A program made the translations under genes and the position numbers. A stretch of DNA of 64,000 bases from Antedon mediterranea (taxonomy: Eukaryota > Animalia > Echinodermata). The stretch spans positions 18,039,648 to 18,103,647 of the forward strand of contig NC_092673.1 in the NCBI RefSeq assembly GCF_964355755.1. The letters run 5' to 3'. The first letter of the stretch is position 1, and each line of letters starts with the position of its first letter. Positions 1,097 through 39,610 of this stretch are shown piece by piece. Under the pieces are notes generated by a model. It worked only from the letters and a program-made list of their open reading frames with translations, was not told where the DNA came from and ran no database searches.

Positions 1097-1119
1097 AAAT
1101 TTACAAAGACATATCCACG

Positions 1120-7100: not shown

Positions 7101-7116
7101 TGATCCGGAAAAGTAA
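1120..7116 (+). pseudogene. BEL/Pao gag-pol polyprotein with one in-frame stop and two frameshifts
   Basis: ATG 1120 in frame with ORF 1201-4182 but TGA at 1195-1197; triple Cys/His knuckle (CLCC..H..C, CFLC..GH..C, CSKC..HNTLLH); protease FLDPGS; RT HHGVYHPKK..RVVFD and YMDD; RNaseH FSDAS..PRMEL..WTDS; integrase H-H-C-C, MDFFGP, SDNGTN, WER; frameshifts near 4095 and 5380. Confidence 0.93.
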
Positions 7117-7340
7117 ATCCTATATTATTCTGGATTGAACAAAACAAAGAAGGAAGCTGAGAAAACTTAAGAAACTTTAAATGAACTTTATATTTAACTT
7201 TATTTTTGTCGCCACTTATATACATTGTTGTTTAACATTATAGTCAATAAGTTGATGGATAATTTGTGTTATAGGCCTGGATTTTACACTTTCATTGTAT
7301 TTGTATGTAGAATTGTGCAATGCGCAATTGTGGGTGGGTA

Positions 7341-7968
7341 TGTAAGTGCCAAATCCAAGCTAGGTATACTGTGCTTGTGTTCACTGAAGGGTGTCAAGTG
7401 AACAGGTGACCAACCATATGGGTTATGCTAATGAGGGCATAGCTTGCTTGGGCTGTGGCTGGCAGTTGGATAGTTAGGCTTGTTGGGTAAGGACCTAGCA
7501 AGCACAAAAGGCTTATTTAGAAGCCTAAGCTGGCCTAGCTCTAGAAGTGGTAGATGTACCAAGGCTTACTTAGAAGCCTAAGCTGGCCTAGCTATAGAAG
7601 TGATGTACCAAGGCTTACTTAGAAGCCTAAAGGTGTAGTACAGTAGTAATTGATATAGTGTATAGCTATAGCTGCACATGTTATCCAGGCATATCTTTGG
7701 TAAGCAATTGAGACTTATCTTATTATTATTATAGTTGTAATTATTTTGAACCAAGAATTATTTATATTGTATTGTTTTATCTATGACTTATTTAGATACT
7801 TATGTAAGGTCTATTATTATTGTATAGAATTATTTATGTTGTACTGTATGATAGATACCGTATACCGGTATATTATTTGTAATCATTATTTATTTGTTAT
7901 AGTAAATCGGATCAAGTCGGAGAACAATTAAATTCCGCATTTGCAAGAAACTTGTTTGTGCAGTTATA
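7341..7968 (+). repeat. 3' LTR of BEL/Pao element (628 bp)
   Basis: Direct repeat of 481-1096 with two ~6-bp insertions and about one substitution. Confidence 0.95.
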
Positions 7969-10033: not shown

Positions 10034-10147
10034 GATGGTAACACTCCATTACAGTCATATCTGTGGAGTGTATATACACCTACCTTAGAAATAGTGACGT
10101 GTCTCATTCAGCATGGGGCACCATTGGCATTAGCATTGCAAAATAAG
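10034..10147 (+). CDS. Ankyrin-repeat exon (phase 0/0)
   Basis: ttccag|DGNTPLQSYLWSVYTPTLEIVTCLIQHGAPLALALQNK|gt matches the ankyrin consensus G-TPL..IV..L+.HGA. Confidence 0.85.
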
Positions 10148-13100
10148 GTAAATGTACAGGGATTTGCTAGTGTAATAGGCTAACATTCTATAGATCTGCT
10201 GAAGTAAACCATTCAATGAGAGAAAAAAGTAAGCACATTAACAAAAATCAAATTTTATTAAAACAAACCAAATAAAAAAATAACTAAATAGTTATATATG
10301 ATTTATGATAACTGATTTAAAGTGTAAAGTCTAATTAATTGTAAATATGAAATAAAATTCGACAACTACTAAACAACTAAAAAATGTTTATGTTAAAAAA
10401 ATTAATAGAATCTGATTTTAATAAAAAATGATTATTAATTAAAAACCTGCTCCCTCCCTTACCTTACAAAAAATGCTTCTGTCAGTCTATCCAGCTAATT
10501 ATGAACATGGCCTTAAAGAAATCCGTTTCCAACCTAGGGTCTTTTTGTGCAAACATTTGCCACAAAATGAAGAGAAATGTACACAATGTTTTGTTAGTTT
10601 TCAAAATCTAAATTGTTTGAGTAATGCAATTTAATAAAGAAAAGTAATATGAAATTAGTCTTTTCAAACTGAATGCTTTTAAGAAAAGTTCCGTCTCTTA
10701 TCTTATGACTTTTTTGAAAAAATTAATTCTCGTTAAAATATAATATACTAGTAAGTGCTCACAGATGCTTCTCGAATACATGAACTTTGGTAAATAACTG
10801 AAAATTGCACTGTACACAAAGCAATACAGATATGATGGAATTTATGTATTCAAATATAATTTTCATCCTGAGAATGACCTTAATTTTGTTTATTGCATGG
10901 TATTGTTCACCAAATTTCTGTCTTGGTACATTTGATGATGGGATGGTACTGTATCAGGCTTCATGATATGATATGATCTTCATCGAGGCAAATGATAAAT
11001 TTGTTTTGATCGTCAATATTCATTCATTCATTCATTCAGGCTTATCGCCTGACTTTATTTACTTTAGGCCTCTGGCCCCTAGTAATTAATAAAATAATAA
11101 TTACATTGAAAAATAAAGCAATTTATGGTCACAAGATAAATGAATTAATTAATTTCGTTCTCTAAGCAAAACATATATCTTAACTTATTAGCATGATAAA
11201 TATATTTAGATAGATTATCAATAATTATTGAATCCTGTGATAATATTAAACGGCAGAATTTAAAAGTATTTGGATTTTCAAAAAGAAGGTATAAATTTTT
11301 TTCTGATTTCCTTGTAACGAGAGCAAACTGTAACAAAATGATATTCATCTTCAACTTCATTTATATCACATATTTTACATAACCTATTTCTGCGTTCTAT
11401 TCTTTTCCAGTACAGTAAGTAGATAACCATAATAAATGCACCCGCTCCCAAAGTAATAATGACTTATCTATTCTATTAGGGAATAACTCTCAGGGTAAAA
11501 GAACTTTTGTTTATAGATCAACTAAATTATGGAATTCTCTACCAAATAACACAAAATCAGAACTGCATAATATGTCTTTGGCAACTTTTAAATCTTCACT
11601 ATAGAAAACATATATGTATTAACCTTTTTGCCTTCACAATTGTAAATAGTTTTATATCTGTTTTCTTTCCTTTTATTTTTCTTTTTTTTTTATTTTTGTT
11701 GTAAATATGTTTACTGAACCACTTTGGAAATCAGTACATTTGTATTGAAAGTGTATTTCAGTTTAAAGAAAGAAGAAATAAATAAATAAATAGATTTTAA
11801 TGATTACTTACATTAAAGTAATAGGCTAACAATCACTAGATCTGATCCATGGTAAGATATTATATTTTGTTTTCATTTATCAATAATGATAATTAGGATT
11901 TTATCACATTATTTAGCAGTAATTGTTGTTGTTTATATTAACAAACAAAAAACAATTTCACATAATGTCTGTTGTCAGTATTTATAAACATTCATGATTA
12001 TGATTCCTTTCCAGTATGGTGACACTCTATTACATTCATATTTGAGGAGTACTGCACCTACCTTAGAAATAGTGACGTGTCTCATTCAGCATGGGGCACC
12101 ATTAGCATTGCAAAATAAGGTAATGTACAGGGATTTGCTAGTGTAATAGGCTAACATTCTATACATCTGATGTGGTAAACCATTCTATTTTGTTCTGGTT
12201 TACCACATTATTTAGCAGTAATTTTTACTGTATTGTCTCATATTATGGTATATCTGCAGCATTGCAAAATAGGGTAATGTAGGCTTACAAAGAATTGTCA
12301 GGACAATTTCACATTTTATTGTTATCAGTATTTATAAACTTCAACTTCAGTATCAATTAGCCTCCATATTAATCAATAGTATTACTACCTCAAAGAGTAG
12401 TATTATTTAATCAGACTTACAGATATAGAATTCTAAAGTGTTTGATTTTGTTCACATTTTCTCTTTTTACACATAGCACATTCTAACAAGTTTGTTTTGA
12501 TTTAGATATTCATTTATAAGTCAACTATAATTGTAATGTGTTGTTGTTGTTTTAATATTTCATTTGTATCTGGATAGTATCCAAATATTATTTTCTTTGA
12601 AAGTTTATAGTAAAACTATTTGTTGTTTTATATTATGGCTCAAACATTTTAACACATCTACCTACTGTTCCAAAGTAAACTTTTATTCAATTTATCTCTC
12701 TCTCTCTCTCCTCCATCTTTCAATGTTGAAGGCGGTAGACTATAAACGGCAGCGCTTAAGTTTTGGTTTGGATACAGGAGTTATAGGTGGCGCACTGTAC
12801 AAATTGATGTCATTTATTGGCAAATAGTATACAAATAATGAATGTTTATGAGTGCAATGGTACAAATAATGGCACGAGGTGAATGATGAAAGGTTATATC
12901 AACGAGGCAAAGCCGAGTTGATATAACCTTTCATCATTCACCTCGTGCCATTATTTGTACCATTACACGAATACAAAACATTCATTATTTGTTTTATATA
13001 ACATCTAAATAACAAACAAAAATGTTTCAAAAAGTACTATTTAACGATCGTTGAATAGTGCGTACTATTGCACGCCATGTGACCCACATTCGTCCAATCA

Positions 13101-16100
13101 AATGACAGGAATTTATATAGGTGTTATATAATAATTTCTATTCATGTCCTAATTTACAACCAATGTTAAAAAATAGTAAATCTACGTGTTATCACGTGAT
13201 GCTCTTTCATCCAATCTCTAGATGGTAAATGTTTGAGCCATGACATAATACTGTATGTATGTGATGCGTATTAAAGTGTGTTATATTGTATATCAATAAT
13301 TTCTCAAAAACTACTAATACTATACTAAACCCATTTTTTTAATAAGGATGGAAATACACCTGTCTCTGTTTTAGAAAGTAACAGGAAGATAGGGGACCAG
13401 AGAAAAACTGAAATTTTAAACTTCTTTAAAAGTAAGTGAAGTTTTAATTATTAAAATTTTGGAATCAACTAGTTTTCATTACAAACGATAAAGATTTGAT
13501 TTCTTGTTCCAAATGAAGAAGAATCAAAACTAGAAAATTAGCATTTATGATATCATTTACATGTTCAGGTAGCAATAGATTAAATAATCCACTGGGATTG
13601 TAGTAAACATGGAAGTTGTGATATGTTGCAAGATGTAAAAACCTTATTTTTTATGATTTGAAAATTGCAAATAAATTAGAACAATTATTTTGCCATTACA
13701 ATAAAAATACACAAAAATGCAAACTTTGAATTAACAATATTGAATAAGTTAGGCCACATTTTTTTTTTTTATGGAACATCATTTTTCACATCAAATCAAT
13801 CTCTTTATTCATCAATACATCAAAACAATTACACATAAAAAAAATAAAGATGTGAAGATGAACGAGACCTCCAAGAAACCCCAAGCTAGTTACAAAAAAG
13901 ACATACAAAAAATAAATTCAAATATTATTTGTTGTGATATTATCAAACAACAAGGTAAATATTTACTGGGTCGGGTAGCTAGGCCTCCTTTATGTAATAA
14001 GCCTGCCTAGTTAGGCGTTGCATTCACCTAATCTTGCGAAGAATAATATACAGATAATTACTAATTAATGATTCCTTGGCAATAAAATATTCACATCGCG
14101 TCTAGGGAGGGCTAATAACAAATGAGGGCGCTAGGTATGCATAGTTTAAATAGTTTAGTTGATTAATTTCTTCAAGCAAGTTGCGTGGTGCAACGGATGA
14201 AGCATTGTCTTGTAATGGTGTGACTAATACTTCGCAAGTTCAAGTCTCAGTAGATGACTTTTGTTTATATATCGCAAAACGAGTGTTGCCACACGAAAAT
14301 TACACTATATCAAAATATCTTCGAGAAATTACTGGATTTCATATGTTTAATGACAGGGACACGATAATTACTCGAAAATTTCTCCGTCAATATCATCATA
14401 CTCGAGGATATATACCATTTACAATTCTTGCAGTGGTACTCATGTGATGCAGTTTCAACCAATCACGTTCACATATTTACATAGGCTATGTAATATAAAT
14501 ATATATTTAGCCTTAGCTTGTTGGTACTGTTAGTAGGACTAACTAAAAAGAGAACCAAAACTGAATGTGAAACTGAAAGTTGACACACTTTTATAGGCTA
14601 AGACCGATCATATTACACTTAAGTCCAATTATGGGCAATTGCAGTTGAGTTTTACAAATAGTGTTAAATGCAATTCAACTTCAGTGGAAATGAAATGTAC
14701 TGCACTTAAGTCAAATGTATTGCACTTAAGTCAAATGTATTGTACTTAAGTTGAATACAATTGTACTTCAGTGCAATGTATTTGGCTTAAGTTTAACTTG
14801 GAGGTAACTGATAAAATTGCTTGCCATAGCAGTGATGCTTCATCTTTGGTTCGCAGATTGTTATACTAAATTCTATGTGTATAATGTTAATATATGTTGT
14901 GAATTTTCAATTATGTATACAGTTCAAATATGAGTGGGATATTCTTGTTTTTGTATACTGGTCCCCCTTCCACAATACTTGACCCCTCTCAAATTTAGCA
15001 TTAGATGCGCCCCTGCTTCAATAGGATCAAATCCCCCTTGTCATTCCCCCTCCCCAATGATATGTGTCATGAATATTTAAAAGTGTTGCCAAGCTGACGT
15101 GACTTTTTATATAGTTCTTTTATTTTAAAAATTATATGTAATTGTTTTGTTTTTGGTAATTTTTCAGATTTACCAAGTCCTGTTAGTGATCAATTTGAGA
15201 AACTAAAGGTTGAAAAACAGAATGGTGAGTTTAAGAATCATCATCAGAATTTACTTTTCACTGAATTATAAAGTATTCTAGTATCCTTCTAAACAGGACT
15301 GTCTGTATGTCAACCAATGCATATCTGTAGATACCTTGGCTTACTACTAGTAACAATTTCTCACTGAAAGTTCATTTATTGGGCACCAGACATTTGCAAA
15401 CACTAAGTAACTAATTGATAATATAATAATGTTGATTAAAAATCCAACCAATCCAATACGAAAAAAAATAAAAAATAAACAAAGCAGAAACTGTTGGCCT
15501 ACACTGTAGCTATCCACAGAATTATAGAGTATTTCAAAAAAGAGTTTGAGGGGAAAAAGTGCTTAATCAATTCAATTTCTTTTATTTCATTCTTAAATTT
15601 CATCCATACCAACAAACGTACAAACAGAAAAAAGAAAATTTGCTCTAAACTTTAAATATATAATGATATTTCTCCATCTACAATACATATGTTTGCAAAC
15701 ACAAGCAACAAGAATTTTACAACTATTCAACATACATTGCATGAAACCTTAGATAGATTTTTGCATATACTCATTAAGGGAAAGGACACTATGTTCAATA
15801 AACATCATACTGATGGCACTACTGATTCTAGAGACATTCAGTATATGGCGCAGAGCATTATTTTAGCATACATTAAGAGATCTAATTGTCTTAGATGGTC
15901 ACACCAAAGGGCAGCATAATAAAGATTAATACAATAAGATCTAAAGAGGCAACATAACATTATATTAGTAATTTGCGATTGAGTGAATCCCACCCTGTCT
16001 AACTCCATTAGATACTGGTAAATGGAATATATATGTTGTACAGGAGAGGGGACATAACCCCACCCTGTCTAACTCCATTAGATACAGGTAAATGGAATAT

Positions 16101-19100
16101 ATATGTTGTACAGGAGAGGGGACATAACCCCACCCTGTCTAACTCCATTAGATACAGGTAAATGGAATATATATGTTGTACAGGAGAGGGGACATAACCC
16201 CACCCTGTCTAACTCCATTAGATACTGGTAAATGGAATATATATGTTGTAGAGGAGAGGGGACATAACCCCACCCTGTCTAACTCCATTAGAGACTGTAA
16301 ATGGAATATATATGTTGTACAGGAGAGGGGACATAACCCCACCCTGTCTAACTCCATTAGATACTGGTAAATGGAATATATATGTTGTACAGGAGAGGGG
16401 ACATAACCCCACCCTGTCTAACTCCATTAGATACTGGTAAATGGAATATATATGTTGTACAGGAGAGGGGACATAACCCCACCCTGTCTAACTCCATTAG
16501 ATACTGGTAAATGGAATATATATGTTGTACAAGAGAGGGGACATAACCGCACCCTGTCTAACTCCATTGAATACTGTAAATGGAATATATATGTTGTACA
16601 GGAGAGGGGACATAACCCCACCCTGTCTAACTCCATTAGATACTGTAAATGGAATATATATATGTTGTACAAGAGAGGGGACATAACCCCACCCTGTCTA
16701 ACTCCATTAGATACTGGTAAATGGAATATATATGTTATAAAGGAGAGGGGACATAACCCCACCCTGCCTAACTCCATTAGATACTGGTAAATGGAATATA
16801 TATGTTGTACAGGAGAGGGGACATAACCCCACCCTGTCTAACTCCATTAGATACTGGTAAATGGAATATATATGTTGTACAGGAGAGGGGACATAACCCC
16901 ACCCTGTCTAACTCCATTGGATACTGTAAATGGAATATATATGTTGTACAGGAGAGGGGACATAACCCCACCCTGTCTAACTCCATTAGATACTGGTAAA
17001 TGGAATATATATGTTGTACAGGAGAGGGGACATAACCCCACCCAGTCTAACTCCATTAGATACTGGTAAATGGAATATATATGTTGTACAGGAGAGGGGA
17101 CATAACCCCACCCTGTCTAACTCCATTAGATACTGGTAAATGGAATATATATGTTGTACAGGAGAGAGGACATAACCCCACCCTGTCTAACTCCATTAGA
17201 TACTGGTAAATGGAATATATATGTTGTACAGGAGAGGGGACATAACCCCACCCTGTCTAACTCCATTAGATACTGGTAAATGGAATATATATGTTGTACA
17301 GGAGAGGGGACATAACCCCACCCTGTCTAACTCCATTAGAGACTGTAAATGGAATATATATGTTGTACAGGAGAGGGGACATAACCCCACCCTGTCTAAC
17401 TCCATTAGATACTGGTAAATGGAATATATATGTTGTACAGGAGAGGGGACATAACCGCACCCTGTCTAACTCCATTAGATACTGGTAAATGGAATATATA
17501 TGTTGTACAGGAGAGGGGACATAACCCCACCCTGTCTAACTCCATTAGATACTGGTAAATGGAATATATATGTTGTACAGGAGAGGGGACATAACCCCAC
17601 CCTGTCTAACTCCATTAGATACTGGTAAATGGAATATATATGTTGTACAAGAGAGGGGACATAACCGCACCCTGTCTAACTCCATTGAATACTGTAAATG
17701 GAATATATATGTTGTACAGGAGAGGGGACATAACCCCACCCTGTCTAACTCCATTAGATACTGTAAATGGAATATATATGTTGTACAGGAGAGGGGACAT
17801 AACCCCACCCAGTCTAACTCCATTAGATACAGGTAAATGGAATATATATGTTGTACAGGAGAGGGGACATAACCCCACCCTGTCTAACTCCATTAGATAC
17901 TGGTAAATGGAATATATATGTTATAAAGGAGAGGGGACATAACCCCACCCTGTCTAACTCCATTAGATACTGGTAAATGGAATATATATGTTGTACAGGA
18001 GAGGGGACATAACCCCACCCTGTCTAACTCCATTAGATACTGGTAAATGGAATATATATGTTGTACAAGAGAGGGGACATAACCCCACCCTGTCTAACTC
18101 CATTAGATACTGGTAAATGGAATATATATGTTGTACAGGAGAGGGGACATAACCTCACCCTGTCTAACTCCATTAGATACTGGTAAATGGAATATATATG
18201 TTGTACAGGAGAGGGGACATAACCCCACCCTGTCTAACTCCATTAGATACTGTAAATGGAATATATATGTTGTACAGGAGAGGGGGCATAACCCCACCCA
18301 GTCTAACTCCATTAGATACTGGTAAATGGAACATATATGTTGTACAGGAGAGGGGACATAACCCCACCCTGTCTAACTCCATTAGATACTGGTAAATGGA
18401 ATATATATGTTGTACAGGAGAGGGGACATAACCCCACCCTGTCTAACTCCATTAGATACTGGTAAATGGAATATATATGTTGTACAGGAGAGGGGACATA
18501 ACCCCACCCTGTCTAACTCCATTAGATACTGGTAAATGGAATATATATGTTGTACAGGAGAGGGGACATAACCCCACCCTGTCTAACTCCATTAGATACT
18601 GGTAAATGGAATATATATGTTGTACAGGAGAGGGGACATAACCCCACCCAGTCTAACTCCATTAGATACTGTAAATGGAATATATATGTTGTACAGGAGA
18701 GGGGACATAACCCCACCTTGTCTTACTCCATTAGATACTGGTAAATGGAATATATATGTTGTACAGGAGAGGGGACATAACCCCACCCAGTCTAACTCCA
18801 TTAGATACTGGTAAATGGAATATATATGTTGTACAGGAGAGGGGACATAACCCCACCTTGTCTTACTCCATTAGATACTGGTAAATGGAATATATATGTT
18901 GTACAGGAGAGGGGACATAACCCCACCCTGTCTAACTCCATTAGATACTGGTAAATGGAATATATATGTTGTACAGGAGAGGGGACATAACCCCACCCTG
19001 TCTAACTCCATTAGATACTGGTAAATGGAATATATATGTTGTACAGGAGAGGGGACATAACCCCACCCAGTCTAACTCCATTAGATACTGGTAAATGGAA

Positions 19101-22100
19101 TATATATGTTGTACAGGAGAGGGGACATAACCCCACCCTGTCTAACTCCATTAGATACTGGTAAATGGAATATATATGTTGTACAGGAGAGGGGACATAA
19201 CCCCACCCTGTCTAACTCCATTAGATACTGGTAAATGGAATATATATGTTGTACAGGAGAGGGGACATAACCCCACCCTGTCTAACTCCATTAGATACTG
19301 GTAAATGGAATATATATGTTGTACAGGAGAGGGGACATAACCCCACCCAGTCTAACTCCATTAGATACTGGTAAATGGAATATATATGTTGTACAGGAGA
19401 GGGGACATAACCCCACCCTGTCTAACTCCATTAGATACTAGTAAATGGAATATATATGTTGTACAGGAGAGGGGACATAACCCCACCCTGTCTAACTCCA
19501 TTAGATACTGGTAAATGGAATATATATGTTGTACAGGAGAGGAGACATAACCCCACCCTGTCTAACTCCATTAGATACTGGTAAATGGAATATATATGTT
19601 GTACAGGAGAGGGGACATAACCCCACCCAGTCTAACTCCATTAGATACTGGTAAATGGAATATATATGTTATAAAGGAGAGGGGACATAACCCCACCCAG
19701 TCTAACTCCATTAGATACTGGTAAATGGAATATATATGTTGTACAGGAGAGGGGACATAACCCCACCCTGTCTAACTCCATACTGGTAAATGGAATATAT
19801 ATGTTGTACAGGAGAGGGGACATAACCCCACCCTGTCTAACTCCATTAGATACTGGTAAATGGAATATATATGTTGTACAGGAGAGGGGACATAACCCCA
19901 CCCAGTCTAACTCCATTAGATACTGGTAAATGGAATATATATGTTATAAAGGAGAGGGGACATAACCCCACCCAGTCTAACTCCATTAGATACTGGTAAA
20001 TGGAATATATATGTTGTACAGGAGAGGGGACATAACCCCACCCAGTCTAACTCCATTAGATACTGGTAAATGGAATATATGTTGTACAGGAGAGGGGACA
20101 TAACCCCACCCTGTCTAACTCCATTAGATACTGGTAAATGGAATATATATGTTGTACAGGAGAGGGGACATAACCCCACCCTGTCTAACTCCATTAGATA
20201 CTGGTAAATGGAATATATATGTTGTACAGGAGAGGGGACATAACCCCACCCTGTCTAACTCCATTAGATACTGTAAATGGAATATACATGTTGTACAGGA
20301 GAAGGGACATAACCCCACCCTGTCTAACTCCATTAGATACTGGTAAATGGAATATATATGTTATACAGGAGAGAGGACATAACCCCACCCTGTCTAACTA
20401 CATTAGATACTGGTAAATGGAATATATATGTTGTACAGGAGAGGGGACATAACCCCACCCTGTCTAACTCCATTAGATACTGGTAAATGGAATGTATATG
20501 TTGTACAGGAGAGGGGACATAACCCCACCCTGTCTAACTCCATTAGATACTGTAAATGGAATATATATGTTGTACAGGAGAGGGGACATAACCCCACCCT
20601 GTCTAACTCCATTAGATACTGTAAATGGAATATATATGTTGTACAGGAGAGGGGACATAACCCCACCCTGTCTAACTCCATTAGATACTGGTAAATGGAA
20701 TATATTTGTTGTACAGGAGAGGGGACATAACCCCACCCTGTCTAACTCCATTAGATACTGGTAAATGGAATATATATGTTGTACAGGAGAGGGGACATAA
20801 CCCCACCCAGTCTAACTCCATTAGATACTGGTAAATGGAATATATTTGTTGTACAGGAGAGGGGACATAACCCCACCCTGTCTAACTCCATTAGATACTG
20901 GTAAATGGAATATATTTGTTGTACAGGAGAGGGGACATAACCCCACCCTGTCTAACTCCATTAGATACTGGTAAATGGAATATATATGTTGTACAGGAGA
21001 GGGGACATAACCCCACCCAGTCTAACTCCATTAGATACTGGTAAATGGAATATATATGTTGTACAAGAGAGGGGACATAACCCCACCCTGTCTAACTCCA
21101 TTAGATACTGGTAAATGGAATATATATGTTGTACAGGAGAGGGGACATAACCCCACCCTGTCTAACTCCATTAGATACTGGTAAATGGAATATATATGTT
21201 GTACAGGAGAGGGGACATAACCCCACCCAGTCTAACTCCATTAGATACTGGTAAATGGAATATATATGTTGTACAGGAGAGGGGACATAACCCCACCCTG
21301 TCTAACTCCATTAGATACTGGTAAATGGAATATATATGTTGTACAGGAGAGGGGACATAACCCCACCCTGTCTAACTCCATTAGATACTGTAAATGGAAT
21401 ATATATGTTGTACAGGAGAGGGGACATAACCCCACCCTGTCTAACTCCATTAGATACTGGTAAATGGAATATATATGTTGTACAGGAGAGGGGACATAAC
21501 CCCACCCTGTCTAACTCCATTAGATACTGTAAATGGAATATATATGTTGTACAGGAGAGGGGACATAACCCCACCCTGTCTAACTCCATTAGATACTGGT
21601 AAATGGAATATATATGTTGTACAGGAGAGGGGACATAACCCCACCCAGTCTAACTCCATTAGATACTGTAAATGGAATATATATGTTGTACAGGAGAGGG
21701 GACATAACCCCACCCTGTCTAACTCCATTAGATACTGGTAAATGGAATATATATGTTGTACAGGAGAGGGGACATAACCCCACCCTGTCTAACTCCATTA
21801 GATACTGTAAATGGAATATATATGTTGTATAGGAGAGGGGACATAACCCCACCCTGTCTAACTCCATTAGATACTGTAAATGGAATATATATGTTGTACA
21901 GGAGAGGGGACATAACCCCACCCTGTCTAACTCCATTAGATACTGGTAAATGGAATATATATGTTGTACAGGAGAGGGGACATAACCCCACCCAGTCTAA
22001 CTCCATTAGATACTGTAAATGGAATATATATGTTGTACAGGAGAGGGGACATAACCCCACCCTGTCTAACTCCATTAGATACTGGTAAATGGAATATATA

Positions 22101-25100: not shown

Positions 25101-28100
25101 TAACAATCGGCACTAATAACTAGAATAACACATGACCATGACACAGCATATCATTCAAGCATAAACTCAATAAGATATTAACCCTTTAAAGACATGGCCC
25201 GCATCCCATACGGGGTAATTTACTGTCCCAGGACATGCAATCAGGCGCAGGATTGGTTAAAGCAAATAACAGAATAGGCAAATTGGTTGGTTTTTTCATT
25301 GGAAAGCAGCAAATAAGCCTATCCTACAACACTGCCAAAAGCAGTCCCACTGTCCATTTGACCAATCCTGCGCTTGTTTTAAGACATGAGGCCCGTATAT
25401 GTACGGGTTGACTTTTTGGGGTCACTAAATTGCACTTTTTGAGCATTTGACCTTTGAACTAGGCAAAACAAAATTTTTACATAATAAATCCAACAATTGC
25501 AGAAAGTTATAGTCATAAAAATGGATTTTTTCATTTTTCCTAAACCTATTAAAAATACTTTATTTAGCCTCGGTCACTTGGGGTAGAAGAAACCTTGCGT
25601 CTTCAAATGGTTAAGTCCTTTACTAGCATATTTATTGTGTGCACAATAATAATTTATTATTATACTGTATGACACACACACATCAATGTAAACAATTAAC
25701 CATTACAGTGTGTTACATGCATAGATATGAATGCAGATGTAGAAAATGTGTAATGGAATAATAGGAATAAAGATTGTATGAAATTGTCTGTTAATCCTGG
25801 AAAGTTCAATTTCAATTTCAATATTATAACATAAAAAAACATAAAACCTAGTTTGTTAATAAATATAATTGCATATAAATACAATGAAAAGTAGTTCAGT
25901 CATGTGGGTGGATTGGGAGGGGGTGGGGGGGGGGAGTAATATAAGTCAGAAGATATAACATTAAATACAAAAAAGAAAAAGAAATACATGAACTAATAGT
26001 ATATATTTTAAAAAAACAAAGCCACAATTTAAACCACTTTATCCGATCTTAACAGGTCTTATTATAATATATATATTTAATGTTCATCATATCTAGAAAG
26101 TAAAAGACTAAACATTAATTTAGAAACACAGTGTAAATATCTACAATAGAATGAGTATTGTATATTCTGTTCATATCATTATTAATAAGCTGGTGTGGTG
26201 TTGATACACAACAGAAACTGGCCACAATAAAAAATGAATGAAAATTAAATATAACTATTCTATAAATATAACCATTGAGAAGTAATTTCTTCATGATATA
26301 AATAAACACATGTGTATGATAAATCAGGTTGAAATAAAATAATTTGCATTGTGTAATGAAGACAATTGTGGCAATGGCTATTTATCAAATACCATTAAGT
26401 AATATCTTACATTAGATTTTTATTTTTCAGATCAAATTATGGAAGTAATTGTGGGATCTGCTGGTGAAACGCTTCATCTTAAGGATGAAGACATCAAGTT
26501 GGAGATACATTCTGAAGCAATTAAAGGGGAGAAAGTTAAAGTATCGCTAGAAAATTGTTTTGAGGAAACAGAATTTCTTGTACTTCATCCTCATGAATCA
26601 ATAATATCACCTATTGTTAAATGTGGACCAGAAGGCACCACCTTCAACAAACCCATTCCATTGTCATTTCCACACGATGCTGTAAATGAACAAAATTGGG
26701 AATTCACTCTACTTGTTAAAGGTCGCATTCAAGATGAATGGAAACCAATAGCATTGACAGATGATAGAAAGGATGTACATTTTACTTTAAGCAACGGTCG
26801 ATGTTATGTAACTATAAATCATTTTAGTTGGTATACACTAAAGGGTTTAAGAAAGTTCTTTCGTGCTAAGAAAAAAATGTTATTAGGAGTTTTTGGAAAG
26901 ATGCTTGCAAAGGATGAATATCAACTTCAAACAAGACTTTTTAAGCCGTCAGATGAAAAGGTAATTGTTATAATTTGTTGTTGAACTGTATTTGAATAAT
27001 GTATTCTTACTTACATTATATTATAGCTGTTCAAAATACAATACAGTAGTTGCTTTGTCACAAAGGATAGTTGTTGTTACTGAGTGGATCTTGTATTTCA
27101 TTGAATATTATGTTAGCTTAAAGCAAACATTGAATTAAATTGACATAATACTTCCAATATTTTTATTTATTTTAAAATGGTACAGTATTAAAAATGCGAG
27201 ACCAAGACTGTACACTATCAAGATTTAAACATGGTTGCATTGTCTGGCTTGCTTTTCCTTTGAATAATTAGGAAGCATTGTACACAGAATAATAAATATA
27301 TTAAATGTGTTGTTTGTACAGTATTACATATATATTTCAGACGATAGAAAAAGAACACAAAGAAAATGGTGAGCAGATGTTAAGACAGCCTATAGAAATA
27401 CTCTGTATGTCTGAAGACATGAAAATTACTGTTGAAGTATTAGACCAGAAATGGAAAATCCAGGAGGTCTCTAAAGAACCACAGGTAAAAACATTTGTTG
27501 AATAAAAATGTAAAACTGTATAATATTATAATTATAGACCTTATATAACAGCTTTGGTAGGTTGAAATGGTAAAGAATATAATTATAATTATTTATTTTG
27601 AGCTGTAGAACTTGAGGCGAGAATTTGTATATAGGCGAAAATTTTAATGGTGATTAGAACAGCATACCCAGATTTTAATCTATTTATGGAAGAAGGGCAA
27701 ACAACATGTAGAAGTGAGTTCCAATCCTCAACTGATGTAAAAAAGTGTCTCCTTATTTCCTGTTTTGTTGTGAGCTTTGACAACTTTAAGGAATTACCTT
27801 GTTTTTGTAAAAGTTGATTTCCAAAGTAGCCTGTTACTTTCAATGGGATCTATATTGTTAATTATCTTGTATATTTGGATAATGTCTGCCCTTTTTTCAG
27901 TAATCCATTTAGTAGTTTCAGAATCTTGAGCCTATCAACATATCCAGTGCCTTTTAAATCAAATACTAATCAAGTGGATCGCTGTTGAACAAGCAAATTT
28001 AAATCTTTCTAGAACCTTATAATCTAAGCACTTAGATATATTCTATAATAGGCCTAATCAGAGATTTATAGAGAGATGTATAAACTTTTTCCATCTAAAT

Positions 28101-31100
28101 ACTTGAAAGATCTTTTTAATGTTCATGTTTAATTTGTGACGTTTCATGAGTGGTCCCCAAATTATGTACGAAAAGAAATATCGCATCCGGCCTTGTTTAA
28201 ACAATCTAATAAAAATTAGTGGTCCGACTTGACCATCATTACCGTTATTTAATCTCAACTTTAGTGATTTGGGGAAAAAACCAAGCTGCGACACTTTTGT
28301 CATGAATGACGGAATAGCAAATAAAATTAACAAGAGTAAAAAAATGCTAGATGAAATTTTTTTTTTTAACCAAATATTTCAGTATTAATAAGGCTAGTTT
28401 TTGTTTTTATTGTACTTGCTCTTTTTTCGTCGGGGTAATGCTAGAGATTGATATTACACAAAGTATGTCGACGTACCTGCTTGGTTGAATGTGATCAAGC
28501 TGACCATGTGCTTTATCAGTGTACTGACGTACTATTTTCAGTATGAAAATGTGTAAACCACAGCCGATTGATGACCGTCGAAACGATGTGTGTTTTTAAA
28601 AATCTATTTCATTTTTCAAAGAGAAAAGAAACATTGTACGTCCCATACATCCCCCGCTAGATCCACCACTGAAGAGGATACCATAGAAAGGACTGCGGCA
28701 TATAGGTAGTAGATGCCACATCACCTACGGTCAAAGAAACTAAAAGTTTCTGTCTTTATCTTAGTCCCAACATGGTTGTGACTATAAGTGGTGGGTTTTT
28801 TCTATCAAAGCCGCTACCATAAAATCCTGAACCCTCCCCTAGGTAACTATTTTCATCAGTAAGAGTACCCCATTGTCCATCAACAATAACATTGCACACT
28901 CCCAAAAAGATTTCTACAGTATGAGGTGCCATACTTTCAAAAATTTGCTAAGCTTAGCCCAACTATTGTTTGAACTCTCCAGCTTGTCAGGTCAGTCAGA
29001 ATAATCACTGTATTGCTTTATACAGTATATTTATTTAGGCAAATTTTCAAGGATCTTTTTCAAATGTGGCAGTCTTGTTTAAAATACAAGCATAAAGTGA
29101 AATCCTGACATCTGATAAGAGTTACACCTAGAACACAAGTACTGTCTTATCAACAAACTACAACTCCACTCCAATATATTTATATGAGTATGGTGTTTTT
29201 TCTAGATTGTCACTGCTGAATACCTAAGGCGTACAAGACCATCAAAGACGTTTCTTTTAATAAGAGGTAATTCATTATTAAAAGCAAAAGTGTTACTGTC
29301 ACAGAAGTCAAATAATATTGATCCAGTTCCAGTGTTTTGTAAGTATTTAAAGTGATAACGGTAAAAAATTGAATCTACATTTATGCCGTAATGAATATGA
29401 TGTGTAACACAGTAATAGTTCATAATGTACATTTAGTGTCTTTGGTCGCAAAAAGAATCTTTGTTTGTTTTGTATTGAAATAATTATTTTATTTGTTACA
29501 GGTGTTGTTGATTCAAAACAAAACCCAGGTATCTTATGCTATATTTGAATTGTTACTAATCTATACGTTGTTATAATGCACAGAAAACTGGCTTTCTATA
29601 CTTCTAAAAATGTACCTTCTTTTATTATAATCGAATTTGTATTATTTTTAGGCAGTAGTAAGGACAAAAATGAAGGAGCGTCATTAAGTAACCAATGCCA
29701 TCCAAGTGAAGGTAAGTTACTAGTATACAAATAATGCATTTGAAGGTATATGAACTATTTTCACATATACTGTACCTTTTTGGGTTAATACACTGTCACG
29801 CTCAGATTGAAGTTAACTATATGGCTACTGAAGAACGCAATTAAAAGTATACAGATATATAACATTAGCAACTGAATGTATTTATTTCTTTGTCCGCCGG
29901 TCACTTCTTCGTGGACTTATTCACTACCAATTACAATCCAATCATACATAAACAATCATGTGTATACTCGGCTTGGTTTACTACAAATGGTAGTCAGACA
30001 GTTACGTATTGGTACCAACTTCAGCCCAACGGGCAGCACTACAAACAAACGTTAACGTTTAATTGTTACAGTTATCTACGTTAGCACACAATTACATTGT
30101 AGCCTATACATTATCGTTATTACAAGTATATGGTATTACAAGTGTATAGCCTTACAATAAATGAGTATCTTACTTACAATGGTCAATCTGTATTATTGCT
30201 GAGGTGCGACACCTCCCTTCTCTACAAGGTTGATGTGAGGTGTAATTACTACATTCCTCTGCAATTCTTTTATACGGTAATACACCTGACTAGTTCTATG
30301 CAAATTACCCTTTGCATTTAACTTTAAATACCTGTCACTTTTGACTGTGACAATTCACCCCACCCAGGTTAAATGTAACACTTTTAACTAACAAATACAA
30401 CTTTATACTTATACTCAAAAGACCACCGTTTGTAGTTTACAATAAATCTCACTTATAGAGACGCCAATACACTATTAAGCTTTACTTTATAATACTTAAT
30501 TAAATCAATAACTACTGTACGTTTACAATATATAACAAAATAATACTTTTCTTTCAACCTTATTTAGTTCATGCGACTCAAATAGTCTGCACCAACGTTA
30601 TTAATACCTTTTATGACCCTTATTCGGTATTTGAATGGTTGTAAACTAAGGGCCCAGCGCAGAATTCGACCATTTGCTGCTACCCAATTCTTCTTTAAGC
30701 ACACCTAGGCCTAACCTAGAAAGAAGCTAGGCTTACCATGGCAAGCACCACTGCTCGGCGACCAAATTTAAGCGTAGGCCTATCCTAGGTAGCAAAACAG
30801 TTGTGTAGCAGAATTGACAAGATACAGTACATTGGTGTGCATTTTTTTTTTATAAATGAGGCCGCCGTGCAGATGACCTGGTTTCATTCTCGAAAATTGT
30901 GTTGTAAGCCTAGCGCGATCGGTATTCTGCAACAAGATTTACACACCATCATGCTTTTATGTTTTTTTTGCTGCACACTTTTTGCACTCTAGTGCATGAT
31001 AGGGAAAAATAAAGAGCGCACACATGACGCATTTCAGTAAGTCTGATGGCTACATCCTTTAACCCATGTTATAATAGATAATATTATAATATGGTTCGAC

Positions 31101-37100: not shown

Positions 37101-39610
37101 ACTAGAATATTTCTCTCTATAATCTGAGACAACAATACCAGAAATATGATTTTTTTGTCGGTTCTTTTGATCTTGCTCTTGGTGAATTCATTGTTATGCA
37201 AATTACTATTTATATCACGAAAATCATAGAACATCAACTAAGCCTACCTGCTATTAGTGTCACTTATGTAACCACTGACTAAAAAAACCCAGTATTTGTA
37301 AGCTCTATAATTTCAATAAAAGTTACTGTACTTTATTGATGAATTCTATAGTATAATTTTTTTTCTCTGTTGAAATGTACCATTTATTTAAAAAATGTAA
37401 TTCTTAATATATGATTTTTAGTTTTCGCCATTTTGTGAAAAAGCCATAGCTCTATTGTATTATGATATTTTATCGGATTTTATCACTTACATAATTTATA
37501 TTTTTAGTTAATTGTGTTGAAAATGTATTTATTTTTTATTAAAAAAACACACTATATTTCCTCCATGACTTTGTGTAGACCTATTTTGTTGGATCGCCTT
37601 CATTTAGTCAGGTGTAGTCACAGAGATTCATCACCATACTTCACGAGATTCTCTCTCAAACTTTCTTTATGGATCACTGATGTTGACTAAACAGTAAAAC
37701 TGCGCAAGTGCAAATTAGCGGCGTCACCAATGGCCAATGAGCTTAAGGTCATTGCCGATGACTCAGCACAAAGTGAATTATAGCCGTTGCCAATCTCTGA
37801 TATTGTTGTCTCAGCTAAAATTATAAGCAAAGAATAGAGAAAAACAAAAATAAATGTAATATTAATTTTAACTCAAACTCATTTTGAAACAATAAAAATG
37901 TCAAATTAATGACCAGTAATTTTGTTTGCAGACAACAACACAATGGCAGATTCTGAAACTTTGAACAGTTTCCGAGACCTAAAAGCTGGTCTCAGTAGGT
38001 GCTTTGATGGTGAAAGATACCACTGGCTGAGATTCCTACTATTTGATCAATTGGATGTCGGGGACCTTACAAATAAAGATTTCAATGGACATGACATACT
38101 CAATACACTTAAAGACAAAGGTTTCATCTCATCAACCAATGTTAACTTGCTGTTAGAGATTACAAATACATCTGAAATCCAACAGGCCAAAGATCTTGTA
38201 TCAAAGTATATGACAGACAACAACATTCAGAATAGACATACTGATGATAGAACCAAGTTGTCACCTTACAGAAAGCGACTGTTCAAGGCCCTGAAACAAG
38301 TTGACCCAGATGCATTACGTAATGTTACTGCTTACTATGAATTGAAAAAATATAACTTATCAAATATATGGGATGCAGTTCTGAAGCTTGAAAATAGAGG
38401 AGAATTAGCAGATGATTTAGACAAAATAGAGAGGTTTGCAGAACGTCTTGGAGGAATAGCAAGGAACATACTACTTGGTAATGGTATTTAATATTCTTAC
38501 AAAACTATTCGAAAGTTAATTGTAATGTAACTATTCATATCTTTCATTTGTTTTAAAATTGTCCATGATGGTAATTTAATTTAAATGATACAATTGATTT
38601 AATTTCAATCATTGTTTATATGCTATACATGTATTATTATTAAAATACATTATTTTATTTATTAACTGATTATTTATAGGTAATAGTGGGAAGGATATTG
38701 CGTCATCAAGTCACCAATGTGAACAAAGTGAAGGTAAATTATTCATAAAATAGTATAGAAAAACAAAAAGAATGATTATAATATGATATTGTTATGATGA
38801 TCAACAAGATTATAATGACGATGAATTGATAATAAAGATACTGTAAAAAATGTTGGATATACGATACGATAGTATTTATTGTCATTTTAACATGGTAAAA
38901 ATGAAATAAAAAAATAAATATATCATCTTTATCATTCAAATTAATTAATTGAATTTCAGTATATTAACGGGCGGTTTAGAATTAATGTTCTGTGTTAATA
39001 ATAATAGATATAGGAAATTAATTTATTTGTTTAATCTGCATTATAATCAAGTATACTACTGAATTTATTACATAATATTTGATACTTGCTTCTCTTCAAC
39101 TGTGTAGCTCTCTCAAACGGTGACTTTGAACAGTTGATTAAAGACTTTGCCAAATGGTTTGATGAACGTAAACTCCTCAACAGCCTAAAAGTTCTTTTCT
39201 TAGAAATGGTAGATGACATTGAAGCAGTGAAAAGGGTTACCAGTACAAGCGACCTATTGGTTCTTTTAATCAATTCTGATCTATTGAGTCGAAAACGTCT
39301 TGCTGTCCTGTATGACACAATAAAAGTAACTGAACAATTTGACTTTCAGCCATCTATCACAAAAAAGCTTTCTCCTTTCAAGAATATCAAGAAGTGTAAG
39401 GTAGTGTCACTACACGCAGTCAATCTTTTTGATTGGGGAAAATCTCTTGATGAACGATACAACTTTCCTAACCTTAAGTATGCAGATAGCTGGAGTTTGA
39501 TTTTAGATTTTGTTCCTCGTGGGTTGCTGAGTGAAGACAAAATTGAATCCATTAAGAAGATGTTGAAAGATGAAAAAACAGTACTGGGTATGATCGACAA
39601 GCATTGTTAG
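10034..39610 (+). CDS. Spliced host gene: ankyrin repeats - ZU5 (HFSW) - UPA-like - tandem DED-like x2 (PIDD-like death-fold protein); 5' end not identified in window
   Basis: Exons 10034-10147, 12015-12119, 13347-13431, 15168-15224, 26431-26960, 27341-27484, 29206-29338, 29502-29528, 29652-29711, 37932-38483, 38680-38733, 39108-39610; all AG/GT flanked and phase-compatible; total 2364 nt ending in TAG. Confidence 0.75.
11020..11400 (-). mobile_element. LINE 3' end fragment with simple-repeat tail
   Basis: Minus strand IEDEYHF..VC motif of the LINE C-terminus; (TGAA)n tail at ~11020-11037. Confidence 0.6.
11425..11790 (+). mobile_element. 5'-truncated CR1/L2-type LINE 3' end
   Basis: RTFVYRSTKLWNSLP motif; (AAAT)n tail; splits the duplicated unit with TAGAT on both sides (possible TSD). 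Confidence 0.65.
12015..12119 (+). CDS. Ankyrin-repeat exon (phase 0/0)
   Basis: ttccag|YGDTLLHSYLRSTAPTLEIVTCLIQHGAPLALQNK|gt. Confidence 0.85.
12830..13132. mobile_element. Palindromic non-autonomous element (long hairpin 12830-12992)
   Basis: ~75-bp inverted arms around the loop gaggcaaagccgag; the inner ~45 bp pair perfectly. Confidence 0.6.
13347..13431 (+). CDS. Terminal ankyrin (capping) exon
   Basis: aag|DGNTPVSVLESNRKIGDQRKTEILNFFK a|gtaagt. Confidence 0.75.
14690..14795. repeat. Degenerate 20-bp tandem repeat
   Basis: tgcacttaagtcaaatgtat and variants, ~5 copies. Confidence 0.6.
15168..15224 (+). CDS. Linker exon (phase 1/1)
   Basis: tttcag|(N)LPSPVSDQFEKLKVEKQN g|gtgagt. Confidence 0.7.
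15989..24729 (-). repeat. ~125-copy 69/70-bp tandem satellite derived from LINE RT coding sequence
   Basis: Minus-strand 69-bp unit translates PFTVSNGVRQGGVMSPLLYNIYI; the commoner 70-bp unit has one extra base; very low divergence. Confidence 0.97.
25182..25610. mobile_element. piggyBac-like MITE
   Basis: TTAA on both sides; TIRs CCCTTTAAAGAC / GTCTTCAAATGG (10/12 match); removal restores the LINE frame KGLNILL. Confidence 0.8.
26431..26960 (+). CDS. ZU5-domain exon with HFSW motif and start of UPA-like region
   Basis: VGSAGETL..LEI..EAI..ISPIVKCGPEGTTFNKPIPLSFPHDA is the ZU5 signature; VTINHFSWYTL with HFSW at 26820-26831. Confidence 0.9.
27341..27484 (+). CDS. UPA-like region exon (phase 0/0)
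   Basis: ttcag|TIEKEHKENGEQMLRQPIEIL..KEPQ|gt; 144 nt. Confidence 0.8.
27585..28050 (-). mobile_element. CR1-type LINE 3' end fragment
   Basis: Minus strand GNSLKL..EIRRHFFTSVEDWNSL. Confidence 0.7.
29206..29338 (+). CDS. UPA-like region exon (phase 0/1)
   Basis: tctag|IVTAEYLRRTRPSKTFLLIRG..DPVPVF t|gtaagt. Confidence 0.7.
29502..29528 (+). CDS. 27-nt micro-exon (phase 1/1)
   Basis: tacag|(C)VVDSKQNP g|gt. Confidence 0.55.
29652..29711 (+). CDS. Linker exon preceding first DED module
   Basis: tttag|(G)SSKDKNEGASLSNQCHPSE g|gtaagt; paralogous to 38680-38733. Confidence 0.75.
29794..30352 (-). mobile_element. Probable 3' LTR of a truncated LTR element
   Basis: TGTCAC...GTGACA termini; purine tract (gggtggggtgaat) immediately 5' on the minus strand; no partner LTR seen. 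Confidence 0.5.
32026..32305 (+). mobile_element. Helentron/DINE-1-like non-autonomous element (HINE)
   Basis: 5' subTIR ACCTCCGCC, (GTCT)n microsatellite, 3' GGCGGAGGT plus short hairpin ending CTAGT; inserted in TT; removal restores the LINE frame HIHYCNIIW. Confidence 0.75.
32437..36488. mobile_element. ~4-kb non-autonomous TIR DNA transposon with TTAA TSD (Kolobok-like)
   Basis: TTAA flanks; TIRs GAGC(C/A)ATTGTCTGTAA(G/A)AATCAAAGA with imperfect inverted similarity over several hundred bp; removal restores the LINE frame LFKELKLLNLFDI; no transposase. Confidence 0.85.
37720..37770 (+). promoter_or_regulatory. Candidate regulatory cluster: two CCAAT boxes and ATGACTCAGCA (AP-1/ARE-MARE consensus)
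   Basis: Motif matches only; ~170 bp upstream of the first DED exon. Confidence 0.3.
37932..38483 (+). CDS. Tandem DED-like exon 1
   Basis: FRDLKAGLS..WLRFLLFD..GHDILNTLKDKGFISSTNVNLLLEI, then LSPYRKRLF..IWDAVLKLENRGEL; DED-type helical pattern. Confidence 0.8.
38680..38733 (+). CDS. Linker exon preceding second DED module
   Basis: tag|(G)NSGKDIASSSHQCEQSE g|gt. Confidence 0.75.
39108..39610 (+). CDS. Tandem DED-like terminal exon
   Basis: FEQLIKDFAKWF..SLKVLF..DLLVLLINSDLLSRKRLAVLYD, then a shortened second unit ..DSWSLILDF..RGLLSEDKI; TAG ends at 39610. Confidence 0.7.

Follow-up and report, generated by a model that had tools for sequence, protein, structure and literature searches.

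A crinoid gene joining a ZU5-UPA module to two predicted tandem-DED units and a candidate autoproteolysis site

The gene at positions 10034..39610 of a 64,000-bp stretch of DNA (the window, to which all coordinates refer) from the crinoid (feather star) Antedon mediterranea encodes a ZU5-UPA module followed by two predicted tandem-DED units. The gene is exon-shuffled and belongs to a crinoid family that shares one tandem-DED module across many protein types. In the best explanation we can offer, to which we give about an even chance, the product is likely to cut itself between Phe252 and Ser253 and its C-terminal piece nucleates DED assemblies. By analogy with human CARD8 or PIDD1, it is likely to be a switch in immunity or cell death, but one whose output domain differs from theirs.

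Twelve exons, all on the forward strand, were rebuilt into one frame of 785 amino acids plus a stop; the first-pass annotation had proposed 12 canonical exons and about 787 residues, and the junctions it had placed at 15224/26431 and 29711/37932 were found there with canonical sites. AG was present at all 12 acceptors and GT at all 11 donors, the donors matching the consensus at 5-9 of 9 positions, and the phases agreed along the chain. The 2,358 coding bases contained no internal stop or frameshift, and in the three long exons the model frame had 0 internal stops against 12-23 in each other frame. Two ankyrin repeat exons, E1 (10034..10147, 38 aa, phase 0-0), which is an internal exon without a start codon, and E2 (12015..12119, 35 aa, phase 0-0), are followed by an ankyrin capping exon, E3 (13347..13431, phase 0-1), and a linker exon, E4 (15168..15224, phase 1-1). 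The ZU5 domain and the start of UPA share one unbroken exon, E5 (26431..26960, phase 1-0), while E6 (27341..27484, phase 0-0) and E7 (29206..29338, phase 0-1) encode the middle and the end of UPA. Linker exons E8 (29502..29528, 27 nt, phase 1-1) and E9 (29652..29711, phase 1-1) lead to E10 (37932..38477, phase 1-1), a tandem DED of type A, and E11 (38680..38733, phase 1-1), a linker exon related to E9 (83% over 42 nt), leads to E12 (39108..39610), which contains a tandem DED of type B and the stop. All module borders from E4 onward were in phase 1.

No start codon for the 12-exon chain was found within the window; in-frame ATGs were located in E5 at 26439 (M124) and 26877 (M270) and in E10 at 37943. 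An independent NCBI annotation, RefSeq XP_071949163.1 and XP_071949164.1 (P0001), corresponds to model residues 270-785 and shares the last seven junctions, E5/E6 to E11/E12, with our model. It covers UPA and both tandem DEDs and leaves out the ankyrin and ZU5 parts, as its two transcripts start at Met270 despite the presence of Met124 near the E5 start, and ZU5 is not joined in frame. For junctions E1/E2 to E4/E5, transcript or database support at the locus was not found. Four RNA runs over 25000-40500 covered introns like DNA and thus have no bearing on expression; no GT-AG joints at exon borders were seen among the 15 of 84 joints listed.

The ZU5 domain proposed in the first-pass annotation is certain at the level of the Pfam profile (E 4.8e-16). 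The best solved sequence match for the region was UNC5B (E 3.8e-7), and the match to ankyrins was weak (E 0.02-0.08). The accompanying UPA-like call also stood: in the predicted model of P0001 (pLDDT 84.8), residues 1-126 matched the UPA of UNC5B, NLRP1 (7crv, Z 10.4), ankyrin-B (Z 10.1) and CARD8 (7jkq, Z 10.0), and Pfam recognised UPA in the paralog P0019 (E 6.5e-5). For another paralog, P0020, the top structure row in the ESM Atlas was UNC5CL (TM 0.50). Pfam and predicted fold together place UPA directly after ZU5, as in autoproteolytic ZU5-UPA proteins.

Examination of E5 revealed a predicted autoproteolysis site, His251-Phe252-Ser253 (26820..26828, forward strand), at the position equivalent to that of CARD8 and PIDD1; this motif is new here, being absent from the first-pass annotation. 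Phe252 aligns to UNC5B Leu677, the counterpart of the scissile CARD8 residue Phe296 according to PMC3210808. PIDD1 is cut at His-Phe-Ser, and the nucleophile can be Ser, Cys or Thr (PMC9162469). All 12 paralogous ZU5 copies, which are close paralogs (49-76%) and not independent cases, keep Phe followed by Ser (5), Cys (5) or Thr (2), with His at position -2 in 11 and Ser in 1, and their neighbouring residues vary. Presence of [H/S]-F-[S/T/C] at the UNC5B Leu677 position therefore matches the autoproteolytic ZU5-UPA proteins, by analogy with which the product is likely to cleave itself at Phe252/Ser253.

E10 and E12 are each predicted to fold as a packed DED pair, in line with the two DED-DED units of the first-pass annotation. 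Pfam DED matches (E 5e-4 and 2e-3) did not reach the curated cut-off, and Foldseek alone returned weak E-values for the units (1e-3 to 1e-2). The model of unit A (E10, P0001 residues 162-332) had a pLDDT above 90 over most of its length and matched the caspase-8 tandem DED 4zbw with Z 15.1 and rmsd 2.6 over 155 aligned residues; its top three Atlas rows were all DED (0.91). Unit B (E12, pLDDT 89.7) also had a caspase-8 tandem DED as its best match, with rmsd 3.5 over 149 aligned residues and Z 12.8, a value within the range flagged by the tool as common for helical bundles, and its structure matches ranked 1-12 were all DED proteins. The best solved matches were the tandem DEDs of caspase-8 and FLIP. 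Both C-terminal exons resemble caspase-8, cFLIP and vFLIP in being predicted as a rigid DED pair, but differ from them in their identity of 16-20%, the presence of two pairs, the C-terminal position and the lack of a caspase or pseudo-caspase domain.

The fourth DED, the second in E12, was found to lack about 10 residues, a stretch as long as a helix that all 32 aligned homologues possess. In a second study, a contig representing either an allele or a close paralog runs across the deletion site without a gap and with 13 substitutions, and the shortened form is therefore no assembly error. This shortening, the sub-cut-off Pfam DED scores and the RefSeq start at Met270 count against our best explanation. 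A young chimeric copy in a birth-and-death cluster, becoming a pseudogene with no selected function, would fit the damaged fourth DED, and also the mosaic ancestry of the parts, the C-terminal tail derived from a 62-bp local duplication, the heavy transposon load and the absence of a start codon from the window. However, 12 exons open throughout, two RefSeq transcripts and a second contig showing the shortened form to be real all argue against such decay, which we regard as quite improbable.

Comparison with known systems indicated that the term "PIDD-like", used in the first-pass annotation, was overstated, since there is one ZU5, no LRR and no death domain, and the layout is closer to those of UNC5CL and CARD8. 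PIDD1 (LRR-ZU5-ZU5-UPA-DD) has in common with the gene a repeat domain, an HFS-type ZU5, UPA and a death-fold output (PMC9162469). Identity with PIDD1 was rejected on three grounds: 1) the N-terminal exons are ankyrin and not LRR, with RefSeq ankyrin model P0168 suggesting further ankyrin left of the window, 2) there is a single ZU5 exon with one site instead of two, a second copy being absent from the window, and 3) DED pairs outrank any death domain among the matches to the C-terminal exons. With DEDs in place of the PIDD1 death domain, recruitment of RAIDD/caspase-2 is not expected. The order of ankyrin repeats, ZU5, UPA and death fold is also that of the canonical ankyrins (ANK-ZU5-ZU5-UPA-DD), which have about 24 repeats. 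Identity with these (Ank1-3) was likewise rejected, as the gene has one ZU5 and tandem DEDs; moreover, the window contains 2 repeats plus a cap, and the repeats find their closest counterparts in crinoid ANK-Roc proteins. A Roco GTPase was rejected because no Roc-COR was found, and tblastn with 171 proteins including Roco models gave no match outside the 12 exons except the last exon of P0168.

CARD8 and NLRP1 (FIIND, that is ZU5-UPA, then CARD) resemble the gene in having a single ZU5-UPA, a cleavage motif that precedes the final ZU5 strand and a C-terminal death-fold output, but here the output consists of two tandem DEDs and not a CARD, the motif is HFS and not SFS, and there is no NACHT. 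The ZU5-UPA-DD supramodule of UNC5CL and UNC5 is similar as well, and UNC5CL keeps autoproteolysis according to PMC10084454; unlike these proteins, our model has no transmembrane helix or ectodomain and has tandem DEDs instead of a death domain, and UNC5B has Gln-Leu-Gly where the gene has HFS. In marine-invertebrate death-fold expansions (DED-TRADD-N; amphioxus DED-NACHT), a constant unit is similarly shuffled onto sensors and effectors, and fusions to FIIND and UPA-ZU5 are reported among the TRADD-N proteins of the DEDD2 clade, which usually also have a DED (PMC8195603). The crinoid unit differs in being a one-exon tandem DED, and no TRADD-N was detected with the general profiles of Pfam.

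Of all the joins in the proposed protein, that between ankyrin and ZU5 is the least secure. Single-exon Pfam Ank matches had E-values of 0.049 (E1) and 0.012 (E2). E1 was 61-74% identical to ankyrin repeats of paralogs P0166-P0168, and E2 is a tandem duplicate of E1 with its flanks (92% over 412 nt). E2 was also 92% identical to the first repeat of the ANK-Roc model P0167, and E3 73% identical to P0167 residues 74-103; the nearest ankyrin paralogs head Roco GTPases. An exon of the E4 type also precedes ZU5 in P0020 (67% over 24 aa). The order ANK-ANK-E3-linker is joined in P0167 and linker-ZU5 in P0020 and P0019, and no remnants of Roc/COR or other family exons were found between E4 and E5; these joins, the lack of such remnants and the phase-1 borders support the link. 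It is placed in doubt by the absence of ankyrin from all 11 annotated ZU5 paralogs, and by a satellite and an LTR element that break up the 5′ region; ZU5 was absent from the four ankyrin matches, two of which are ANK-Roc. The 70-bp satellite (15989..24728, 125 copies, no strand assigned) takes up 8.7 kb of the 11.2-kb E4/E5 intron. The LTR element, a BEL/Pao retrotransposon with LTRs 97.9% alike, lies upstream of E1 (481..7969, forward strand), and window positions 1093-1197 within it code for the final 34 aa of P0168, stop included, at 100% identity. The upstream ankyrin repeats of P0168 thus run into the element and end there, and E1-E12 may be cut off from their start codon. We consider the chances about evenly divided that E1-E4 form the N-terminal sensor of a ZU5-UPA-tandem DED protein with its start codon left of the window.

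The end of P0168 in the element, the satellite and the closeness of E2 and E3 to the head of P0167 would also be expected of a split locus, in which an ankyrin gene, originally of ANK-Roc type, has its transcript trapped by the LTR element, leaving E1-E4 as orphaned 3′ exons, and the expressed product is a sensor-less UPA-tandem DED-tandem DED protein. Such a product would resemble an already-cleaved C-terminal piece and would serve either as a constitutively active DED scaffold or as a decoy similar to short cFLIP; the RefSeq CDS indeed starts 17 residues past the predicted cut in both transcripts, and stand-alone models of two tandem DEDs are known (P0011, P0025). Against this, frames and splice sites of E1-E5 are intact, as is the ZU5 stretch of E5 including the HFS motif, and the E4 type precedes ZU5 in P0020. 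Both in-exon indels between E1 and E2 are multiples of three, whereas indels in the flanks are one base long; substitutions (9/105 in the exon, 11/295 in the flank) did not differ significantly (Fisher p 0.066). Furthermore, many RefSeq models in the cluster look fragmentary, several starting inside an intron or mid-domain, and the short model may reflect missing evidence. We judge a split locus rather unlikely.

The first-pass annotation had suggested a possibly undescribed PIDDosome/DISC hybrid; comparison with its relatives showed that the gene does not stand alone, as the tandem-DED exon is shuffled crinoid-wide and is commonest on NLRs. Five of the 11 annotated ZU5 paralogs (P0015, P0018, P0019, P0020 and P0022) have ZU5-UPA followed by a tandem DED, and each of the 11 unnamed relatives whose origin was checked came from a crinoid. 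Module carriers in the family include NLRs, Roco GTPases, a RIG-I-like helicase, Rel, kinases and caspases; the 71 long module-bearing proteins scanned comprised 22 with NACHT, 8 with Roc/COR, 5 with B-box/NHL, 3 with kinase, 2 with TIR, 1 with Rel, 1 RIG-I-like and 2 with caspase. The caspases with an intact QACxx motif and a tandem DED were P0143 (type A) and P0097 (type B), the latter being the Anneissia "caspase-8-like" protein. Recruitment of DED caspases without an adaptor, as had been suggested, is plausible in that these crinoid caspases share both DED-pair types, but with the exon commonest on NLRs, caspases are only one candidate partner. In the tree, the tandem-DED caspases were far from the modules of the gene. 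Complex prediction for tandem DED A with the P0143 prodomain, with no alignments used, gave a score of 0.00 in two runs, which speaks neither for nor against binding.

It is possible, though unlikely in our view, that the product does cleave itself but its partners are the NLR, Roco, RIG-I-like, TIR or Rel proteins with the same module, to which its tandem DEDs would bind, leading to NF-kB-type transcriptional signalling or sensor tuning, as with UNC5CL and PIDD1-C. The ratio of 22 NACHT and 8 Roc/COR to 2 caspase carriers points in this direction and counts against a caspase output, and the type A module groups within those at the C-terminus of Roco models encoded on the same chromosome-scale contig, with 70-87% identity. 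However, such closeness reflects recent exon copying and not binding, the best solved matches are caspase-8/FLIP tandem DEDs, and each module type is also found on a crinoid caspase.

Because the HFS motif is present, the mechanism we favour is that of a self-cleaving switch, modelled on CARD8, NLRP1, PIDD1 and UNC5CL. ZU5-UPA would cut itself between Phe252 and Ser253, and the two pieces would stay associated and inhibited. Binding, cutting or degradation of the N-terminal piece would then release the C-terminal piece, UPA would drive oligomerisation, and the freed UPA with its two tandem DEDs would nucleate DED assemblies with tandem-DED proteins, e.g. the crinoid caspases. A bolder proposal, which we hold to be doubtful, is that crinoids rebuilt cytosolic immune signalling on a shuffled tandem-DED exon, with this gene as an ankyrin-sensor, self-cleaving ZU5-UPA receptor. 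Its ankyrin exons would vary fast, and like CARD8 it would act as a tripwire, activating four-DED or two-DED caspases without an adaptor.

Death-fold domain shuffling in marine invertebrates is already well known, and the copy studied may be young. A search by title and abstract opening found no literature on ANK-ZU5-UPA-DED proteins or the crinoid tandem-DED family, although the architecture tables of PMC8195603 may list a similar protein. The results point to a large crinoid tandem-DED immune network, a description of which was not found in the literature searched. The ZU5 paralogs offer a natural series of Ser, Thr and Cys nucleophiles in near-identical ZU5 folds, useful for the study of cleavage chemistry. 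Self-cleaving ZU5-UPA switches have been characterised with death-domain (PIDD1, UNC5CL) and CARD (CARD8, NLRP1) outputs. If the ankyrin-sensor receptor reading is true, the gene would be a DED version of this switch, known with DD, CARD and PYD outputs. A version ending in tandem DEDs would show that death-fold outputs of different classes can be fitted to the switch, and that it can feed caspase-8-type assemblies directly.

Twelve plus-strand exons were rebuilt directly from the raw window sequence, E1 (10034-10147), E2 (12015-12119), E3 (13347-13431), E4 (15168-15224), E5 (26431-26960), E6 (27341-27484), E7 (29206-29338), E8 (29502-29528), E9 (29652-29711), E10 (37932-38477), E11 (38680-38733) and E12 (39108-39610), and joined in phase to encode 785 aa and a stop. 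Every acceptor was an AG preceded by a pyrimidine-rich tract, all donors were GT and agreed with the consensus at 5-9 of 9 positions, and for each of the three long exons only the model frame was open, bearing out the in-phase chain of the first-pass annotation. Since E1 starts at an acceptor, the start codon lies outside this chain. A database search with E10 returned a 100% match from Antedon mediterranea, the RefSeq protein of the locus (P0001; XP_071949163.1 and XP_071949164.1), corresponding to model residues 270-785, so that NCBI uses the identical seven junctions from E5/E6 onward. P0001 starts at Met270 despite an in-frame Met124 near the E5 start, indicating that its transcripts begin within E5 or join at an internal acceptor (three candidates); it is either a truncated model or a genuine short isoform. 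We conclude that the locus is a real gene.

Pfam detected ZU5 on E5 (E 4.8e-16), ankyrin weakly on E1 and E2 (E 0.049 and 0.012), and DED with sub-threshold scores on E10 and E12, which carry tandem-DED (tDED) units A and B, respectively. The AlphaFold2 model of P0001 (44-sequence alignment; mean pLDDT 84.8) consisted of a beta-sandwich and two helical units, with low-confidence linkers. Compared with 48,161 solved chains, the beta-sandwich matched the UPA of UNC5B and those of NLRP1, ankyrin-B and CARD8 (Z 10.0-10.4 for the latter three), and unit A matched the caspase-8 tDED (Z 15.1, rmsd 2.6, 155 residues); Foldseek was weakly concordant, and unit A grouped with DED and vFLIP-like clusters in the ESM Atlas. 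E12 modelled alone (pLDDT 89.7) had the caspase-8 tDED as top match (Z 12.8, rmsd 3.5, 149 residues), DED proteins occupying ranks 1-12. From these fold matches four DED folds are predicted, in keeping with the up to four DED-like domains first proposed. Some 10 residues that 32 of 32 aligned homologues possess were missing from the fourth DED; since a contig from a second study crosses the deletion site without a gap, the shortening is not an assembly error. With this shortened domain set beside the in-phase exons, we consider a decaying chimera improbable. A 62-bp local duplication (39575-39695) overlapped the stop codon and provided the final ten or so residues, which were absent in the closest paralogs.

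The E5 segment His251-Phe252-Ser253 (26820-26828, plus strand) placed Phe252 against UNC5B Leu677 in sequence alignment, with the numbering offset confirmed by the structure match; Leu677 has been equated with the scissile Phe296 of CARD8 (PMC3210808). According to PMC9162469, the PIDD1 motif is His-Phe-Ser, possible nucleophiles are Ser, Cys and Thr, and Ser replaces His in NLRP1 and CARD8. Across 12 ZU5 copies from 11 paralogs, Phe was invariant (12/12), preceded by His (11/12) or Ser (1/12) and followed by Ser (5/12), Cys (5/12) or Thr (2/12). Because the nucleophile position switches only among three competent residues, this suggests selection for cleavage chemistry, although the copies are close kin. 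We infer probable cleavage at Phe252/Ser253.

When E1-E3 were used together as a profile, four Antedon proteins matched, two ankyrin-only and two ANK-Roc, with ZU5 in none of the four. The relative P0167 had the order ANK-ANK-E3-linker-Roc, and another, P0020, had the same linker, an E4-type linker and ZU5-UPA-tDED; by transitivity, these joins make an ANK-E3-E4-ZU5 splice reasonable. Searching relatives' proteins against the window revealed nothing Roc-like between the ankyrin and ZU5 exons. Against the ankyrin-ZU5 join, ankyrin occurred in 0 of 11 ZU5 models, an 8.7-kb satellite occupies the E4/E5 intron, and RefSeq omits the join. A split locus yielding a sensor-less scaffold or decoy, favoured by these three points and opposed by the P0167 and P0020 joins, is possible but doubtful. 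The satellite (15989-24728; 70-bp unit, 125 copies, 97% matches) was nearly without CpG; its minus strand resembles what we take to be a short LINE reverse transcriptase (RT) piece and an RT-like fragment lies just after it (24796-25011), so tandem amplification of a LINE fragment may have given rise to the satellite.

Upstream of E1, the RefSeq ankyrin model P0168 begins with a start and two ankyrin repeats that have no counterpart in the window, and its last exon is identical to 1093-1197, stop included, within a full-length BEL/Pao LTR retrotransposon (481-7969, plus strand; LTRs 97.9% identical). On the simplest reading, the gene has its 5' exons to the left of the window and the element is intronic, with or without trapping of the transcript; the ending of P0168 inside the element points to a possible gene trap, and the last exon of P0168 could possibly represent another copy of the element elsewhere. 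The element had an apparent 5-bp target duplication, a stop near the start of its coding region plus frame changes, and was nested in a minus-strand LINE remnant. E1 and E2 arose by a recent tandem duplication; all nine substitutions between the exons fell within the first 43 bases and both exon indels preserved the frame, hinting at a variable binding surface at a non-significant p of 0.066 (exon versus flank). The intervals 58936-60630 (minus strand), 61072-62850, 41120-42964 and 31153-32004 contained SCAN-like gag and integrase C-terminal fragments of a second LTR element, tandem arrays of 60, 62 and 102 bp, and a LINE RT fragment within the E9/E10 intron; a 150-aa open frame (46231-46680, plus strand) had no Pfam match.

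Paralogs, which the first-pass annotation had proposed seeking in this genome, numbered 11 (eight further Antedon proteins from the ZU5 search, three from other searches); tDED followed ZU5-UPA in 5 of the 11 and preceded it in several. P0001 gave 169 matches against 1.84 billion representatives, the best 150 being taken further, and the tDED unit occurred in 158 of the 171 proteins collected (202 copies). A domain scan of 71 new proteins of at least 400 aa, of 143 (thresholds 1e-3 and 1e-5; best five families per protein), revealed 1) at least 22 NACHT, 8 Roc/COR, 5 B-box/NHL, 3 kinase, 2 caspase and 2 TIR proteins, and 2) at least one fusion each with Rel, RIG-I-like, URGCP GTPase, USP, PARP14-like, fibrinogen and ENTH domains. 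The 11 relatives whose species were looked up, of 143, were all crinoid (Antedon 5, Anneissia japonica 6), and it is on these that the unit may be called crinoid-specific. Individual relatives included a caspase-8-like protein (P0097/P0171; Anneissia japonica XP_033126911.1) with two tDED units (four DEDs) and then an intact caspase domain, a tDED joined to a Rel homology domain (P0121), and a RIG-I-like helicase (P0091) bearing a tDED where such helicases usually have CARDs. Most models of an expanded ANK-Roc-COR-tDED Roco family (P0002-P0009, P0012, P0018, P0167, P0169) share a 36.19-Mb contig with the present gene; P0018 was Roc-COR-tDED-ZU5-UPA-tDED. In a midpoint-rooted FastTree, unit A nested within the units that Roco models carry at their C-terminus (support 0.92-0.95), unit B grouped with stand-alone and ZU5-linked units, and caspase prodomains were distant from both. 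Module borders from E4 onward were all phase 1 and the ankyrin exons phase 0-0, a layout that would be expected from exon shuffling and duplication.

Judged by the criteria for PIDD1, ankyrin and Roco membership, the gene fell outside all three, and the initial label PIDD-like, read as PIDD1 membership, was dropped. ZU5-UPA with DD, CARD or PYD is already known, such clusters being listed in the ESM Atlas; invertebrate TRADD-N proteins foreshadow DED combined with FIIND or UPA-ZU5 (PMC8195603), some FIIND sequences are labelled 'ded' (PMC3210808), DED-NACHT fusions occur in amphioxus and sea urchin (PMC2575513), UNC5CL autoprocessing is confirmed (PMC7883297), and PIDD is reported as not found in lophotrochozoans (PMC11463336). 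No description of ANK-ZU5-UPA-tDED-tDED was found in our literature search, the source tables of PMC8195603 lying outside its scope.

By analogy with CARD8, UNC5CL or PIDD1, and as read from sequence and predicted folds, 1) the precursor would cleave itself at Phe252/Ser253, 2) the pieces would remain associated and ZU5 would hold the C-terminal part in check, the arrangement described for CARD8, NLRP1 and UNC5B (PMC9162469, PMC10084454), 3) a trigger on the N-terminal part would release UPA-tDED-tDED, and 4) this would oligomerise and seed DED assemblies, following tandem-DED filament logic (PMC11874512); this whole sequence of steps is the most likely of the readings, at about even odds. Candidate targets would be crinoid caspases with type A (P0143) or type B (P0097, four DEDs) prodomains. 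Partners other than caspases, compatible with cleavage and to be set beside both these prodomains and the range of fusions, seem unlikely. Tentatively, and with considerable doubt as to the whole, the gene may encode a full ankyrin-sensor, self-cleaving ZU5-UPA receptor in a crinoid tandem-DED immune network, which would activate caspases without an adaptor.
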